IMG/VR virus record: IMGVR_UViG_3300032829_000004
Span: 33,803-97,802 of that record
Direction: 5' to 3' (one strand)
DNA length: 64,000 nt
From: a virus
In this document: one piece after another, positions 1 through 54,501 of the stretch
Layout of the letters: each line of letters starts with the position of its first letter
How positions within the stretch are numbered: the stretch's first letter is position 1
The notes under the pieces: model-generated
The model's database searches: none
What the model saw: only the letters and a program-made list of their open reading frames with translations
What the model was told of the DNA's origin: nothing
Program-made: the position numbers and the translations under genes

Positions 1-271
1 CCGGGGCGGCACCATCCTGCAGATGATCGGCGCCGGGCCGGAACTGCTGCCCGCCGCGGTGGAGCGGAACCCGGCCAAGGTCGGCAAGGTCATGGCCGCG
101 ACGGGAATACCGGTCATCTCCGAAGAGGAGATGCGGGCCGGCCCGCCCGAGTACCTGCTTGTCAGCCCTTGGTTCTTCCGCGACGTTTTCACTGCCCGCG
201 AAGCGGAGTACCTGAAAGGGGGCGGCAGGATGGTGTTCCCGCTGCCGCGTTTCGAGGTCGTCGGCGGATGA
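1..271 (+). CDS. NDP-sugar C-methyltransferase, C-terminal part (5' truncated by window)
   Basis: ERNPAKVGK...GIPVISEEE...PEYLLVSPWFF...GGRMVFPLP, typical C-terminal domain of this family. Confidence 0.75.
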   Translation, partial: RGGTILQMIGAGPELLPAAVERNPAKVGKVMAATGIPVISEEEMRAGPPEYLLVSPWFFRDVFTAREAEYLKGGGRMVFPLPRFEVVGG

Positions 272-966
272 TCTCGGTCCTGTGCCCGTCACGGGGACGC
301 CCGGAATCCCTCAGCGGCTCGATCGGTTCCCTGCTCAGCCTTGCCTCTGACATGACCGGGGTTGAGATCCTGGTCGCCGCCGACCCGGACGACCATGCCA
401 CCGCGGGCGCGGTGCCCGCGGTTGCCGCCTGCTGGACCGCCCCGGAACGTTACGGGTACGCGCAGCTCCACCGCTACTACAACCACCTGGCAGCGCTTGC
501 CCGGGGCGAGTGGCTGCTGCTGTGGAACGACGACGCCCGGATGCTCACCAGGGACTGGGACAAGGTCATCGAGGGCCAGGAGCCGGGCGTCCTGTGGCCA
601 GGGTCCAACCAGGGCCCGTACTTCTTCCCCGCGTGGCCGAAGGCGTGGTCGGACGCGTGGGGCCACGTGTCGCTGTCCCCGAACGTGGACGTGTGGCTGT
701 CCGAGGTCGGCTCCCGGCTAGGCCTCGCCCGTCCGGTCCCGGTCGAGATCGTGCACGACCGGAAGGACATCACCGGCGGCCATGACGACCTGACGTACGC
801 TGAAGGGCGCGCGGTCATGGGCGCCTACTCCAACCATCCCGACTACGATTCGGCGGCCAACCGGGAAGCCAGGATCAGGGACGCTATCGCGGTGCGGCGC
901 CTCCTGGAGGGGGTGTCCTCAGCCTCAGCTACAGCGCCTCGAACCGTTCCAGCCGTACCGGGGTAG
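268..966 (+). CDS. Glycosyltransferase family 2 (GT-A fold)
   Basis: MISVLCPSRGRP, ADPDD, YYNHLA..ARGEWLLLWNDD; ATGA overlap with upstream gene. Confidence 0.8.
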   Translation: MISVLCPSRGRPESLSGSIGSLLSLASDMTGVEILVAADPDDHATAGAVPAVAACWTAPERYGYAQLHRYYNHLAALARGEWLLLWNDDARMLTRDWDKVIEGQEPGVLWPGSNQGPYFFPAWPKAWSDAWGHVSLSPNVDVWLSEVGSRLGLARPVPVEIVHDRKDITGGHDDLTYAEGRAVMGAYSNHPDYDSAANREARIRDAIAVRRLLEGVSSASATAPRTVPAVPG

Positions 967-1243
967 AGCACTTCCCGCACAGGAGCGGCTCCATCGCATG
1001 CCAGGTCCGCCAGAACGGATGGCTGGCGAACGTGATCGCCTGCCTGTGCATGTTGCACACCGGCCACGGCTCGGCGGACCCGCAGGTGCCAGTGTTCTCC
1101 TCGTGGTCGAACAAGGCGAGCCACTTCGCCGTATCCGCGCACGGCGGGTCGGCCATCGAGAAGAAGCACGGAACATGGCCCTCGAACATGGCCAGGGCCG
1201 CTGTGCGGGATTCGACGGTGCTGCCGGCCGCGGCGGAAGTCAT
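929..1243 (-). CDS. Hypothetical Cys/His-rich (zinc-binding) protein
   Basis: CxxH and CxxC motifs; TAGATT 6 nt upstream of ATG (leaderless). Confidence 0.55.
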   Translation of the reverse strand: MTSAAAGSTVESRTAALAMFEGHVPCFFSMADPPCADTAKWLALFDHEENTGTCGSAEPWPVCNMHRQAITFASHPFWRTWHAMEPLLCGKCSTPVRLERFEAL

Positions 1244-1421
1244 GACCGGAATCTACCGGCCGCCGCCAGTCCTGGCGTCCCGGGACCGGGGAGGCCCGCA
1301 GCGGGGACCTCTTGCGGTCTTTGCCCCGCCATGCCGCCGTGAAGCCGGACCGCGTCAGCGGCGGGGCGGGCCTCTCCTTTCTTCTCCCGTCACTTCCGGT
1401 CCCCGCCGGCCAGTCCGTGAT

Positions 1422-1814
1422 CTAGCCGGCAGCCGGGGAGCAGTACGAGCGGAGTGCCGCGGCATCAGCCGTCCACTGGCCCACCGCCGCAGTCATCCCG
1501 GTGCCCGTGGCGAATGCGAACCCGATGTTGAGCGCGTCGGCCGCGAGACTGTCGGCGAGCATTCCGGCGGTCGTTCCTTTCCGGCCGCCGAGCGCGACCG
1601 AGTCATCAGCGGTCTGCGTTTCCGTCGCGGGGGCTTCCGCGGGGAGCGCGGCCAGCGCGGAAGCACAGCCGGGCGGCATCGCCGCTGCCGTGGCTTTCGC
1701 CGTGACGGCGGCTTTCGCCGTGACGGTGACTGCCGACACCGGCGTGCCGGGCGAGCAGGCGGCAAGCAGGACGGTGAGCGTGAGCAGGGGGACAGCACGG
1801 CGTGCACCCATCAT
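1422..1814 (-). CDS. Putative lipoprotein
   Basis: Signal peptide with LAAC lipobox; GGAAGG SD. Confidence 0.65.
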   Translation of the reverse strand: MMGARRAVPLLTLTVLLAACSPGTPVSAVTVTAKAAVTAKATAAAMPPGCASALAALPAEAPATETQTADDSVALGGRKGTTAGMLADSLAADALNIGFAFATGTGMTAAVGQWTADAAALRSYCSPAAG

Positions 1815-1966
1815 GAGGGCAGCGTCCTTCCTAGGGGTGACCTGGGTTGCCGGCGGCTGCGGCCTGCGCGCGGCGTGTGACAAGGCGTGACGCTACCAGT
1901 TGACCGGGGCGGACACAGGAAGCCGCGCTTCCCCTTCACTCATCCGAATACAGCCCGGAGGCAGCC

Positions 1967-2326
1967 TTGGCCGACACTGACCCAGCCGTCTCGTATGCCG
2001 TCCGGGACCTGATAGCGGAGCTCCGCAACGACCTGCGGGGCGACATCGCCGCACTGCGCGCCGAGATCGCAGCCCAGCGGCAGCACCTGGAAGACAGGTT
2101 CGACCGGATAGACGCCAAGCTCGACGGGAAAGCCGACCGGGCAGCGGTCGACGCCCTGGCCGTGCGGGTCACGACGCTCGAAGAAGACAGGCGGGTCCGC
2201 GAGGAACGGGACCGTGTTGAACGCGAGCACCATCAGGCCGGGGTCGACTGGCACCGGTGGATCTGGCCCACCCTCGCGGCCATCGCGGTCGTCATCGTCG
2301 GGATTCTCCAGATAGTGCTGAAATAG
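1967..2326 (+). CDS. Coiled-coil protein with C-terminal TM helix (lysis-cassette membrane protein)
   Basis: GGAGG SD with TTG start; heptad region then WIWPTLAAIAVVIVGILQIV. Confidence 0.7.
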   Translation: MADTDPAVSYAVRDLIAELRNDLRGDIAALRAEIAAQRQHLEDRFDRIDAKLDGKADRAAVDALAVRVTTLEEDRRVREERDRVEREHHQAGVDWHRWIWPTLAAIAVVIVGILQIVLK

Positions 2327-2329
2327 GGG

Positions 2330-3511
2330 GTGCCGGTGACCGTTCCCGCGCACGTGCAAGCGGAGTCGCATCACTACGTGATGCACTTCCCGCCCCACCC
2401 GGCCAGGGCCGACGACCCGCATTACGCCGACTTCGACCACTACCACCGCAAGACGCGGGCGACCGCACGGTGTTACATCGGTGAGCGGATCGGGTTCGGC
2501 GACTGCAAAGACGCGCAGTGCAAGCCGTGCCCGCCTCCTGAAGACGGCGGCGAGCAGCCGGGGCTCGAGCTGCACCATGCCCACGTCGAGTTCAGCCTCC
2601 AGAACGGCGTCGACCTTGCCGCACTCGAGAAGGACTACCCCGGCATCTCCGACCCGTCTCAGGTCGGGGCATGGGTCGAGTCGGAGGCGAACTTCCGGTG
2701 GCTCTGCGTCGCCGAGGGATCGCCCGTGCTGATGGCGGACGGCACGACGCGCCCGATCGAGTATGTGCTACCCGGCGAGCAGGTCATCGGCAGAGACGGA
2801 CTGCCTCACCTTGTCGAAGTAACCAGCCGGAAGAGGTATCGCGGCGAGCTCGTATCGTTCGGCTGCGCGTCGTTCACGCCTGAGCACCGCATTCTTAGTC
2901 ATCGAGGCTGGCTCTCTGCGGCCCATGTTTTCCGCCAGGTCTGGATGCATGGCCCGGACGTGATCGCGCTGCGATGCGAACAGAACCAGATTCGCTCTGG
3001 CGTTGTCGGCGCGGTTCCCGTTGAGGTGGTGAACGCGCTCTCGCGGCAGCAGCGGGCGCCCTATCCAGTCTTCCATGACCACGACGTGCTCCATGCGATG
3101 CCGGCTGCCGTCCCAGATGCGGATGTAGCCCTTCGCGGTGACCCAGGCCGTCCGGTTGCCGACGTTCCACTTCGGGAGCTTGTTCAGCTCCGTGAGGCGG
3201 CACTCGTTGGTGCAGTAGCGCCCGACGTTCGGGCGGGAGCGCCAGTGCGCCGGTCGGTGGAAGGTCTTCCCGCAGGAGGCGCAAGCCCAGAGATGGGATG
3301 GGTCACAGCGATGCCCAGCCGGACGGCCGCTTTTACCGGATGGGTTCACGACCTAAGTGTAGCGCATAGCCACTCTTTTGTTGTGGGCGGCATCGCGGCT
3401 CATAACTGTGCCTGGCATCACAGGGGGGCGGCCGGGGCGCATACGGCGTCGCATTCCGATTGGGAGGCGAGCCAGTACGTGCAGGGTCTGATTTCGCAGG
3501 CGGCGAAGTGA
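2330..3511 (+). CDS. HNH-like His/Cys-rich protein interrupted by an intein
   Basis: Extein LELHH...NFRWL|CAWHHRG; 125 aa + 234 aa intein + 34 aa. Confidence 0.8.
   Translation: MPVTVPAHVQAESHHYVMHFPPHPARADDPHYADFDHYHRKTRATARCYIGERIGFGDCKDAQCKPCPPPEDGGEQPGLELHHAHVEFSLQNGVDLAALEKDYPGISDPSQVGAWVESEANFRWLCVAEGSPVLMADGTTRPIEYVLPGEQVIGRDGLPHLVEVTSRKRYRGELVSFGCASFTPEHRILSHRGWLSAAHVFRQVWMHGPDVIALRCEQNQIRSGVVGAVPVEVVNALSRQQRAPYPVFHDHDVLHAMPAAVPDADVALRGDPGRPVADVPLRELVQLREAALVGAVAPDVRAGAPVRRSVEGLPAGGASPEMGWVTAMPSRTAAFTGWVHDLSVAHSHSFVVGGIAAHNCAWHHRGAAGAHTASHSDWEASQYVQGLISQAAK
2705..3406 (+). mobile_element. Intein (234 aa)
   Basis: Block A CVAEGSPVLMADG, block B TPEHRIL, block F VHDLSV..HSF, block G GIAAHN followed by Cys+1. 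Confidence 0.9.
2768..3349 (-). CDS. HNH homing endonuclease with N-terminal zinc finger, antisense within the intein
   Basis: CASCGKTF...YCTNEC; GYIRI...EHVVVME..IGRPL...ERVHHLNGNRADNARANLVLF...H. Confidence 0.85.
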   Translation of the reverse strand: MNPSGKSGRPAGHRCDPSHLWACASCGKTFHRPAHWRSRPNVGRYCTNECRLTELNKLPKWNVGNRTAWVTAKGYIRIWDGSRHRMEHVVVMEDWIGRPLLPRERVHHLNGNRADNARANLVLFASQRDHVRAMHPDLAENMGRREPASMTKNAVLRRERRAAERYELAAIPLPAGYFDKVRQSVSADDLLAG

Positions 3512-4266
3512 CCGGCATCCCCGTCCAGGGCCTGTCGCCGGCAAAGGCTGGAACGGGCGTGACCAGGTCGATTGTCGTTCACCAGGTCCGCGTCGCGGAT
3601 GAGGGCCGCTGGCAGTGGCGGGGTTCCCGCCTGACCTGGCAGCCTCCGCACCGGTACGGGTTCGAGGCGGAGTTCGACCCGTTCCCCGCCTACCCCCACG
3701 ATCCTGACGCGGCCCGCAAGGCGGCCGATCATGTCGCCGCGTGCTGCCCTCCGCTGTGGGACGTGAACCTGTACCTCGCCGACCGCGAGGAGACGTCCCG
3801 GTCCAACGGCCACTCCAACGTCCACGAAGGCGGCCGGTACGAAGGCTCCGAATGGGTGCAGGACGAGCCGTCCGGGATGATCCTGCTGTCCGCCAAACGG
3901 ATACCGCCGCACCCTGCGATGACCCGCCACCTGGTGGCCCACGAGTACGGGCACAACGTCGAGTACATGCTGAACTCGCTGCGCGGCGGCAGGCACGTGG
4001 CATCATGCGACGACCTCGAACGCGAGTACGCGGAAATGCGCGGCCTCCCGCCGTCGTCGGTCCACCACGGGGAAGGCGCGACCTGGCACGACTCCGCCTG
4101 CGAGATCATGGCGTGCGACTTCCGGATCGTCGTCTGCGGCACCGAGGCGGAGTTCTGGCCCCACCCCGGCATCCCACGGCCGGAAGAAGTACCCGCCGTA
4201 CGGCAGTGGTGGGTCGGCGCGACGGGACAGCTGGCGGATGGCCTGGCCGCGAAGCAGGCGGCATGA
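3508..4266 (+). CDS. Putative zinc metalloprotein (HExxH)
   Basis: LVAHEYGH plus downstream EIMA; GTGA overlap. Confidence 0.65.
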   Translation: MTGIPVQGLSPAKAGTGVTRSIVVHQVRVADEGRWQWRGSRLTWQPPHRYGFEAEFDPFPAYPHDPDAARKAADHVAACCPPLWDVNLYLADREETSRSNGHSNVHEGGRYEGSEWVQDEPSGMILLSAKRIPPHPAMTRHLVAHEYGHNVEYMLNSLRGGRHVASCDDLEREYAEMRGLPPSSVHHGEGATWHDSACEIMACDFRIVVCGTEAEFWPHPGIPRPEEVPAVRQWWVGATGQLADGLAAKQAA

Positions 4267-4339
4267 CCTCCAAGGCCCGTGCTGGGGCGCTGGTCTTCCC
4301 GGGCGGCGGGGACGGGACTCCCGAATGGCAGGCGGCTTC

Positions 4340-4708
4340 ATGAGGCAGCACGATGCGGTCACCCATCCCCGGGACCTGATCGCCACGGAGAAGCGCGCGG
4401 TCGCCAGGTTCAACGACTGGGCGGCCACTCATCTCGCCGCGTTCTTCGGCCTGGTGTGGACGGTGTGGTTCTTCGCCGCCTGGCCGCTGGCGTCGCTGCT
4501 GCTGCCGAAGGGCCTCCAGTCGGTGGCGTTCTTCATCTCCTCCGGCTGGATCCAGCTATGGGCGCTGCCGCTGCTGAACTACGTCTCCAACCGGACCCAG
4601 GAGATGCAGGGCGCGCAGTCCGACGCGCAGCACCTCGCGCTGACTCACATCGCGAACACGGTTGACGACATCAAGGCCGCTCTCGCGGCAGGGAAGGACC
4701 CGGCATGA
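4340..4708 (+). CDS. Two-TM membrane protein, holin candidate (DUF1003-like)
   Basis: RFNDWAA...FFGLVWTVWFF...WIQLWALPLL; directly upstream of the endolysin. Confidence 0.65.
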   Translation: MRQHDAVTHPRDLIATEKRAVARFNDWAATHLAAFFGLVWTVWFFAAWPLASLLLPKGLQSVAFFISSGWIQLWALPLLNYVSNRTQEMQGAQSDAQHLALTHIANTVDDIKAALAAGKDPA

Positions 4709-36787: not shown

Positions 36788-36873
36788 ATGATGCCACAAC
36801 ACTGTGGCATGGTCAATCCGGCCATAATGTTGTGGCATGATGCTACACTGGTGTTGGCCACATGCGTGTGGCA
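36788..36873. promoter_or_regulatory. Divergent promoter region with three GCCAYA-N4-TGTGGC operators
   Basis: Minus strand TTGACC-17-CATCAT ending just before the first pentamer; palindromes at about 36791, 36821 and 36857. Confidence 0.7.
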
Positions 36874-46596: not shown

Positions 46597-46731
46597 AGAC
46601 TAGCGCGAACTAGCGCGCAGTGCAAGCGTAGTCCAGGTTAGTGCTTACGATGTTGGTACATGTCTTTACAGTTCGGCGTCTGTGTGTTCTAATGGTCGAT
46701 AGTTCGCGCCACTTCGCGCTAGGATTCCAAC
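46597..46731. promoter_or_regulatory. Immunity switch region with repeated (T)AGCGCGAA-type operator motifs
   Basis: CTAGCGCGAACTAGCGCG near 46600 and inverse AGTTCGCGCCACTTCGCGCTAG near 46701; TAGGAT 6 nt before cI ATG. Confidence 0.6.
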
Positions 46732-47268
46732 ATGACGGACAGCCCCGCCCGGCCGCCCGAGGCGGAACTCCTCCGCCGCGCCCGCAGGCGCCTCCGCCTG
46801 CCCCTCCGCGAGGCCTCGGCCGCCGCCGGCCTCAGCGAAAGCCGCCTGCGCCAGATAGAGGCCGGCTACCAGACAGTCAGCAAGGGCGTCCAGATCCCGA
46901 CGTCAGCGACCGACGTCACGCTCGCCCACCTCGCGAAGGCCTACGGAATCACCCCGGAGGAGCTCGAAGAGTCCGGGCGCGCGGACGGCGCCGAAGTCCT
47001 CCGCGAGATCCTCCGGCCGCAGGCCCCCGCCGCGCCGGCCCTGCGCCCCGTCTCCTCGCCGCCGCCGCCATCGCCCGGTTCTCCCGCCGAGGAATACCTT
47101 GCCGAGCTTCTCGCCCGCTACCAGGATGACGACGTGGTCCAGGCGATCGGCGCGCAGAAGGGGACAGCCAAGGCCGCGTCGGTGAAGGTGGCCGAGATCC
47201 TCGAGTGGCTGGACTTCCAGAGCCGCATCTCGGGTCAGGGGCCGGCGGGAAGCGGTTTCGCGGGGTAG
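46732..47268 (+). CDS. CI-like immunity repressor (XRE HTH)
   Basis: REASAAAGLSESRLRQIEAGY; divergent from cro; leaderless. Confidence 0.8.
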   Translation: MTDSPARPPEAELLRRARRRLRLPLREASAAAGLSESRLRQIEAGYQTVSKGVQIPTSATDVTLAHLAKAYGITPEELEESGRADGAEVLREILRPQAPAAPALRPVSSPPPPSPGSPAEEYLAELLARYQDDDVVQAIGAQKGTAKAASVKVAEILEWLDFQSRISGQGPAGSGFAG

Positions 47269-48959: not shown

Positions 48960-49177
48960 CCGCCGGCCCGCGGCCCCCGTTCCCCGGCGGGGGCCGCCAT
49001 CCCTATCCCTGCCCGCCGCGCTCACGTGCCCCTCCTGCAATCGCACACCCAGTGCCCACTTTGCACCATCCGGCCCCGCCACGCCATGACTCACGGGTAA
49101 CTTGAAGGGACGAGCGGCCACCAGGACGCAGGAGTCCGGACGTCCCGGTACGTTCCGCCGCCTCCTACGTTGCCCGG

Positions 49178-49432
49178 ATGGACTTTTCCGGGGTGAGACG
49201 GCACGGTGCCGACAGGTGGCTGTACCAGCAGATCGCGGACGTGATCGCCGCCGCGATCGACTCCGGCGAGCTGGCCCCCCGCCAGCAGGTGCCTACCGAG
49301 AAAGACCTGATGGACGCCACCGGGGCATCCCGCCAGGCGGTCCGGCACGCGATCGGGGACCTGCGCCGCCGCGGGTACTTGTACACGGTCCCGCAATTGG
49401 GAAGTTTCGTCACCGAACGCAAACCCGAATAA
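49178..49432 (+). CDS. GntR-family winged-helix regulator
   Basis: LYQQIAD...GEL.P...VPTEKDL...SRQAVRHA...G.FV. Confidence 0.85.
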   Translation: MDFSGVRRHGADRWLYQQIADVIAAAIDSGELAPRQQVPTEKDLMDATGASRQAVRHAIGDLRRRGYLYTVPQLGSFVTERKPE

Positions 49433-53624: not shown

Positions 53625-54111
53625 GCGAACAGCGTAAGGCGGTGAATCTCCGCAAGAGGGGCGATCTCCGGGAATTCAGCCCGGTCCGGGCTGCAATCCA
53701 GCACCCGAAATCGTTTTTGGCACCGGAAAGAAAATGGGGGTGCGTGCCGCTTGTGCCAGCGCTGGCAGGGCCGTGCCGGACGGGCCGCCGCCGTCCCGCC
53801 TGCCCGATAGGCTTAGACCGCGCGCTCGCGCCTCCCTCTTCTTCCCGCTAGGAGCCTCCCTCTTTTGGATGCCCCGGTGGCGGCTGCACTGTCGCCTTCC
53901 CTTGCCCGTCTCGCCATCGCGGTGACGGGCGTGACGGGACCGGCGGGGGTGCGGGACAGGCTGATCCTGGCGGAGGCGGGGGAACTCCCGGAGGGGGATG
54001 CGTATGCGCTCGGCGTTGACCTTGACGTGCTCGCGGGCCTGCTTGCGGGACGGTAGGCACGTTTGCGTAGCCCCCCTTTACAGGGCGTCCCCTTCACTGT
54101 AAAGTGGGGGT

Positions 54112-54501
54112 ATGCAAACGACGGACGGCATCCTCAACCCGCTCGGCCTCACAGTCTGGACCGAGCGCCCCTGGGACCTCACCCCCTACAACGAGGCACA
54201 CCGCCCGGACGACCTCGCGGCCATCACCGCGAGCATGGAGGCGGACGGCTGGCAGGGCCTTCCCCTCGTCATCGACGACCGCGGCCTCGAGTCCGGCGGG
54301 CAGCTCCTGACCGGCAGCCACCGCCAGCTGGCCGCAGGCGAACTCGGCATCGACATCCCCCTCGTGTCCGTCACCGAGATCGCAGACCGGGCCGGGATCG
54401 ACATCAGCGCCTACGACAACGGCGAAGGCCAGACCGACTGGGAGCAGTTCTTCGCGGCGCTCCCCGCCGAGATCCGCGAGCAGACCGGGTTCGACCTGTG
54501 A
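54112..54501 (+). CDS. ParB/Srx N-terminal domain protein
   Basis: SMEADGW...PLVI...LLTGSHR..AA..LG. Confidence 0.7.
   Translation: MQTTDGILNPLGLTVWTERPWDLTPYNEAHRPDDLAAITASMEADGWQGLPLVIDDRGLESGGQLLTGSHRQLAAGELGIDIPLVSVTEIADRAGIDISAYDNGEGQTDWEQFFAALPAEIREQTGFDL

Follow-up and report, generated by a model that had tools for sequence, protein, structure and literature searches.

The window, by which we mean the whole stretch of DNA that was analysed, comprises the rightmost 64 kb of a virus record that is 97.8 kb long and has direct terminal repeats. The GC content of this soil phage is 71%, and the locus is present in wetland metagenome runs, with no RNA run among those listed. The locus is situated in a block of plus-strand genes, immediately upstream of the genes for a GH25 endolysin and a GDSL lipase. 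A precursor ORF of 393 aa extends on the plus strand from the GTG at 2330 to 3511, stop codon counted, and the predicted protein P0001 is 100% identical to it. The precursor consists of an N-extein (2330-2704), which contains an ELHH motif and ends with NFRWL, an intein of 234 aa (2705-3406) and a C-extein (3407-3511 including the stop codon), which begins with CAWHHRG. Removal of the intein leaves a phage protein of about 159 aa. The intein precedes an invariant Cys in the context WL/C..HHR, where the slash marks the junction.

The extein belongs to an HNH-like yet unclassified protein family. It was assigned to no Pfam or NCBIfam family, a sequence-profile search of the PDB gave no significant match, and the single lead from the atlas, HNH_2, was weak (19% of one cluster, rank 29). 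The term HNH-like extein therefore describes the layout of the motifs only, and we treat the protein as HNH-like but unclassified. The intein-less proteins P0026 and P0036 carry a long His/Lys-rich N-terminal extension; such proteins have a length of 221-307 aa. One extein allele (L159:432-710) is broken after QNGVSL by unrelated sequence and another one (L065:3001-3426) contains an in-frame stop; both may be decayed or recombined copies. A 53.9-kb contig from a 2025 rhizosphere run, which is 92% identical to the window over 2330-3448, shows a compensating +1/-1 indel pair (2447/2455) in the N-extein.

Landmarks and predicted fold of the intein

Motifs, alignment and AF2/Foldseek analysis identify a class-1 intein, which starts with Cys1 (2705-2707) and ends with His-Asn (3401-3406), followed by the +1 Cys (3407-3409). 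Block B reads TPEH (2876-2887) and block F reads VHDLSV with the Asp at 3350-3352. A search of 5.8 billion proteins provided 24 full-length homologues with the intein that could be aligned. Cys1 is present in every aligned homologue and the block B His in nearly every one. Blocks A and B belong to the N-terminal Hint lobe (2705-2935), which is predicted with a pLDDT of 77-93 at precursor residues 123-200, and substitutions within this lobe are mostly located at sense codon position 3. Blocks F and G lie in the C-terminal Hint lobe (VHDLSVAHSHSF...HN; 3293-3406), which shows a pLDDT of 64-82 and is kept in all aligned homologues. The sense-frame linker between the lobes (2936-3292) lacks structure and arises by translation through the strand opposite the HNH core, which is described below.

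In the AF2 model of the precursor, residues 123-200 and 320-358 are folded (pLDDT 64-93), and residues 219-317 have a pLDDT below 50 and are devoid of secondary structure. Using the folded part as query, Foldseek retrieved the mini-inteins Ssp DnaB, Mtu RecA and gp41-1 (E 4e-6 to 1e-4, TM 0.63-0.78), and in these matches the mini-intein target spans the gap left by the unstructured linker. According to the model, the disordered insert occupies the position at which the endonuclease is usually found in the Hint fold. The Pfam profile Hom_end_hint scores 28.4 bits, below its cut-off of 32.1. The original prediction had seen no nuclease in the sense frame between blocks B and F, and the finding of a poorly conserved linker that is predicted to be disordered agrees with this.

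Intein-less alleles, of which there are hundreds, show the sequence NFRWLC(A/V)(W/F)HHRG at the junction in the alignment; the insert is therefore located exactly before that Cys. The empty allele L003 on a 92-kb viral contig shares 91% (aa) and 86% (DNA) extein identity with the window, and its junction peptide is identical to that of the window except for one D/E difference seven residues upstream of the junction. With the landmarks present and the empty site visible in the intein-less alleles, the proposed complete intein at the Cys of NFRWL/C could be confirmed. Judging from the conserved catalytic residues and the open frame, the intein is probably capable of protein splicing.

A zinc-finger HNH gene on the opposite strand

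The minus strand of the intein contains an ORF of 193 aa plus stop (3349-2768) with a GTG start codon at 3349-3347, which encodes a zinc finger and a probable HNH_3 nuclease. Its coding part (3349-2771) runs in codon register with the sense ORF. The protein of the window scores 23.5 bits (4e-5) against Pfam HNH_3, which is just below the cut-off of 24.8, and it matches PHROG HNH families with values down to 7e-13; the relatives L242 (44.5 bits) and L163 (32.3 bits) are above the Pfam cut-off. The motifs follow the order HH...N...N...H. The zinc-ligand residues C23, C26, C46 and C50 as well as H107, H108, N116 and N120 are invariant, H130 is near-invariant, and the catalytic and zinc-ligand residues are all conserved down to 38% identity.

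An AF2 model of the HNH protein shows a strand-strand-helix arrangement with a pLDDT of 78-89 for residues 70-135 and tails with values of 36-51. The best fold match of the core in the PDB is I-HmuI (1u3e), which is weak (E 0.3, prob 0.8), and a sequence-profile search of the PDB with the HNH protein revealed nothing significant. The folded core (about residues 20-143; 3292-2921) lies almost exactly within the sense linker (about 2936-3292), so the folded parts of the two proteins abut and do not overlap; the parts overlapping the Hint lobes are the low-confidence N- and C-terminal tails. For the HNH proteins P0046-P0050 an exact sense-protein partner was sought and none was found.

To compare both frames at the DNA level we used codon alignments of the window, L002 from IMG/VR and L242 from a Dormibacteria MAG. 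Both frames are open in all three instances, and the HNH protein of L242 is 38% identical. The sense GC3 of the N-extein is 0.87-0.90, and between 3050 and 3290 the GC content of the codon positions is reversed, with a sense GC1 of 0.9-1.0 and a GC3 of about 0.5. In the codon alignments of these instances, changes in the exteins and Hint lobes peak at sense position 3 (0.38-0.77 between the window and L002), whereas in the middle they peak at sense position 1 (0.36 vs 0.20 for the same pair), which is position 3 of the antisense frame. The fraction of differing residues in the middle is 0.24 in the antisense and 0.43 in the sense frame, and the flanks show the reverse. The 92% identical rhizosphere contig displays the same codon-position flip among the differences listed.

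A second test at the protein level asked if a sense residue can be the reverse-complement partner of the opposite invariant HNH residue, using 24 further intein-bearing proteins and 23 invariant HNH residues. In the true register 514 of 540 cells (95%) are compatible, compared with 5-24% in shifted registers, and 22 of the 24 proteins remain compatible at 19-23 of the 23 positions. The 95% compatibility indicates that the antisense HNH is conserved across the whole intein-bearing family, in which the sense proteins share only 38-65% identity. Taken together, the substitution patterns show purifying selection on the antisense frame in the middle region. Residue conservation and register compatibility thus substantiate the original assignment of the codon-aligned antisense frame to a zinc-finger HNH protein, and the comparison of selection in both frames among the homologues places the constraint on the middle region in the antisense frame.

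An open frame has little weight of its own at this base composition. In the genes of this phage, a codon-aligned antisense frame is open over 143-193 codons in 44-57% of comparable stretches; as suggested originally, the reverse complement stays free of stop codons because of the high GC content. A single open sense frame is therefore not significant alone, and the evidence for the antisense gene comes from conservation across homologues and not from the openness of one frame. We considered that the antisense ORF may be a chance or decayed open frame without function, and the locus a mini-intein with a long junk loop. The tendency of GC-rich DNA to keep antisense frames open and the Pfam score of the window below the threshold would fit this explanation. 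It was rejected as highly improbable: the substitution pattern, the preservation of the catalytic and zinc-ligand residues in distant relatives, the confidently folding core and the conserved 5' element described below are all at odds with a chance ORF.

The sense frame is continuous in 28 of 28 intein-bearing alleles, a sample that favours open frames since most homologues were found as full-length predicted proteins; the sense-frame stops that would have spoken against the original interpretation did not occur in these mostly full-length predicted proteins. Two of them (P0013 and P0016) have lost the HNH core by an in-frame deletion, as expected late in a homing cycle. These data also bear on the idea of a fractured gene with a split intein, the halves of which are translated separately and trans-splice, so that the open sense frame would be accidental. 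Genes fractured in this way, with a nuclease gene lying between the two parts of the intein, have been described (PMC2677866), and the chance of openness calculated above applies to each lineage at this GC content. Nevertheless, the region is open in every intein-bearing allele, including the two with in-frame deletions, the search of 5.8 billion proteins contained no truncated N-terminal fragments of at least 216 aa, and in the published fractured genes all three ORFs are located on one strand and are delimited by stop and start codons (PMC2677866). With a continuous sense frame in 28 alleles and an antisense nuclease, we rejected the split intein as very unlikely.

Distribution, free-standing relatives and a shared 5' element

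The layout of an intein with an antisense HNH gene is kept in about 30 related genes. Only 1 of the best 80 of 459 IMG/VR matches contains the intein, and a metagenome scan revealed almost only intein-less alleles among the matches listed. Neither protein and DNA searches of the INPHARED phages nor scans of viral contigs that used the intein or the HNH protein as a single query produced a match. In an extein-only tree of 174 sequences with 28 carriers, the intein state needs 24 changes, compared with 27-28 after shuffling. For 23 of the 28 intein-bearing exteins the nearest intein-less relative is closer than the nearest intein-bearing one, and the identities of extein and intein show almost no correlation (rho 0.14). 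Compared with the window, P0003 shows 90% identity in the extein and 50% in the intein; the corresponding values of P0002 are 67% and 62%. This scattered distribution is the pattern that would be expected of homing with loss.

The closest IMG/VR relatives of the nested HNH protein are L163-L166 and L167 with 45-46% identity, and a large gap separates them from the next matches. In these contigs the HNH gene is free-standing. It converges on an intein-less allele of the gene that carries the intein in the window, and overlaps the 3' end of this allele. In L163-L167 the HNH gene lies about 70-105 nt from the point of intein insertion, with a stop codon about 70 nt away from it. A tree built from 44 HNH_3 proteins placed the nested copies, the free-standing copies and P0051 in one group apart from 33 others, with an SH-aLRT value of 89, which is not strong. 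The relationship to free-standing HNH genes claimed originally is supported by this grouping with L163-L166, L167 and P0051.

Nuclease genes adjoin intein-less alleles in other contigs as well (L055:3431-3937, L106:1034-1588, L069:3481-4005 and L062:2366-3214); this set includes HNH_3 genes downstream on the same strand, an endonuclease VII-like gene in convergent orientation and one divergent gene upstream. To judge from these neighbours, homing nucleases seem to favour this phage gene. A related observation concerns L168 (IMGVR_UViG_3300044673_000235, 2-4492), where a 1497-aa ORF is opposed by two HNH_3 genes on the other strand (1532-3004 and 653-1168). The sense protein contains the antisense signature 'V..PVDMVD.L' and intein blocks were not seen; it may be an antisense nuclease insertion that is read through without splicing.

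The HNH cassette has a conserved 5' element of 24 nt on the minus strand (3374-3351; AGTGGCTATGCGCTACACTTAGGT). It includes a -10-like box, TACACT, at 3361-3356, 6 nt before the GTG start codon of the HNH gene. On the plus strand the same element forms the block F codons LSVAHSH, among them CTA, AGT and GTA. These three are rare in this phage, with shares of 2-6% in their synonymous families. Upstream of the HNH start, the pattern AGTGGCTATG-GCTA--CTT(T)AGGT is common to the window, L002 and the free-standing L163. The L163 element matches at 22 of 24 aligned bases, though the GC content of the L163 phage is 47%, and parts of the element are present in L167 and L242. Across all of IMG/VR the pattern occurs only in these contigs.

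A TANNNT box is located exactly 6 nt before the HNH start in the window, in L002, in L242 and in the free-standing L163. The same geometry of TANNNT, 6 nt and a start codon is found at the 5' ends of at least five further GC3-supported ORFs of the window, at 1241-1255 (minus strand) and, on the plus strand, at 36825-36839, 46720-46734, 49166-49180 and 54100-54114; in total the window contains 10 matches to this arrangement at 5.5 expected. Its position at GC3-supported ORF starts suggests that leaderless transcripts may be common in this phage. We infer that the 5' element acts as a leaderless-type promoter of the HNH gene. A scan for consensus sigma-70 sequences at the locus detected no promoter.

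The shared element has implications for the direction of transfer. Because block F is a universal intein motif, its presence upstream of the free-standing genes suggests that the sampled free-standing HNH copies descend from a nested copy. The original prediction assumed that a free-standing HNH gene had invaded a mini-intein, but an escape from the intein fits the shared block F element at least as well. The original event may still have occurred in the opposite direction, from a free-standing HNH gene into the intein. As a tentative extension, to which we give somewhat less than even odds, the HNH cassette would shuttle autonomously between a free-standing state beside the target gene and an antisense state nested in the intein, with its leaderless promoter doubling as block F.

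Bonocora and Shub as well as Zeng and coworkers reportedly described in 2009 homing endonucleases that are free-standing, act on the gene next to them and take part in collaborative homing with introns. The HNH genes of L163-L167 resemble such enzymes in that they abut an intein-less target gene; the partner here is an intein and not a group I intron, and the case presented here is known from sequence. The HNH gene could be an autonomous selfish cassette that mobilises itself and only shelters in the dispensable loop of the intein; the intein would then be no more than a passenger in collaborative homing, and the enzyme would strictly speaking not be the intein's own endonuclease. The free-standing occurrence of the same HNH lineage with its 5' element beside intein-less alleles (L163-L166, L167), the apparent possession of an own promoter and the other HNH genes adjoining this gene in other phages (L055, L106, L062, L069) are in favour of this idea. 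However, the persistence of compatible HNH positions in 22 of the 24 further intein-bearing homologues (19-23 of 23 each) argues that intein and HNH travel together, and functionally a selfish cassette would differ little from an intein with its own nuclease gene. We therefore consider it unlikely.

Proposed mechanism and relation to known systems

The explanation that we prefer, with a probability of about 0.8, is that a contiguous class-1 intein has its homing endonuclease encoded separately, by a gene on the other strand, with the HNH cassette belonging to a lineage tied to one target gene, which is either nested in the intein or free-standing and abutting the 3' end of intein-less alleles. 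The mRNA of the plus strand would be translated into the precursor, in which the two Hint lobes would fold around a floppy linker of about 120 residues; excision of the intein would then yield the ligated phage protein. The same DNA, read in reverse and in codon register, would provide the zinc-finger HNH_3 nuclease, probably expressed from its own leaderless-type promoter, which would lie opposite the block F codons. In co-infected cells this nuclease would make a cut or nick close to WL/C in alleles that lack the intein, and recombinational repair would copy the intein together with the nuclease gene into the cut allele; both steps are deduced from the distribution.

Antisense nucleases within inteins have been published. 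A preprint by Gosselin, Arsenault and Gogarten (bioRxiv 10.1101/2025.01.02.630785) describes antisense LAGLIDADG nucleases in the Synechocystis DnaX and Chloroflexus SpoVR-like inteins and antisense LAGLIDADG or VSR-like nucleases in inteins of actinobacteriophages, and credits the antisense LAGLIDADG case to Gorbalenya 1998 and Gogarten 2002. In this preprint HNH nucleases appear only in frame, and free-standing nucleases are proposed to invade inteins. A 2026 preprint (10.64898/2026.09.14.751524) assigns the DnaX nuclease to an overlapping '+2' frame, so published accounts of the DnaX case differ. The original remark that no intein example was known can therefore not be maintained in view of the antisense LAGLIDADG and VSR-like nucleases (10.1101/2025.01.02.630785), and the novelty of the locus is lower than first assumed. 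The observation itself is real, and the mechanism is largely the one proposed originally.

The locus shares several properties with the published antisense-nuclease inteins: a nuclease ORF encoded between the splicing blocks by the other strand, a sense frame free of stop codons, a sense product of the nuclease stretch without recognisable structure, and a sporadic distribution suggesting ongoing transfer; an origin from free-standing nucleases has been proposed for those as well. It differs from them by the combination of HNH_3 and zinc finger, by the host gene, which encodes a small HNH-like protein beside lysis genes, and by the documentation of sister cassettes that stand free at the same target gene, together with a shared 5' element overlapping block F. 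Inteins with the nuclease in the intein polypeptide likewise have Hint lobes flanking the nuclease and a homing-type distribution, whereas the nuclease described here is separate and needs its own signals for transcription and translation on the opposite strand.

Two further systems are comparable in part. In fractured genes (Dassa et al. 2009, PMC2677866) a free-standing nuclease gene is likewise located between the N and C parts of a split intein, but the three ORFs share a strand, and stop and start codons interrupt the host gene, whereas the host frame analysed here is continuous and the nuclease is antisense. The ShiLan domain of phage methylases (Arsenault et al. 2025, PMC11855218) is an out-of-frame HNH insertion; like our locus it has a zinc-finger HNH in an alternative frame of an insertion that is stop-free in the host frame, but the nuclease is on the same strand (frame 3) and an intein splicing domain is lacking.

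The locus is thus the HNH-type form of the published antisense-nuclease arrangement in a new host gene, and it adds this member to a small published set of inteins with opposite-strand nucleases. It is also another case of overlapping genes that escape annotation. New are the sister cassettes that stand free beside the same target gene, and the shared 24-nt 5' element; the sister cassettes and the overlap of block F with the putative promoter are the parts worth following. This overlap is a compact example of a constraint acting on two strands. With nested and free-standing copies that occur at a single target gene and have a 5' element in common, the model of intein origin, be it 'free-standing nuclease plus mini-intein' or its reverse, becomes directly testable. 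If the cassette indeed shuttles between both states, the family would represent a natural snapshot of inteins and homing endonucleases joining or parting, in which both states and the boundary element are preserved.
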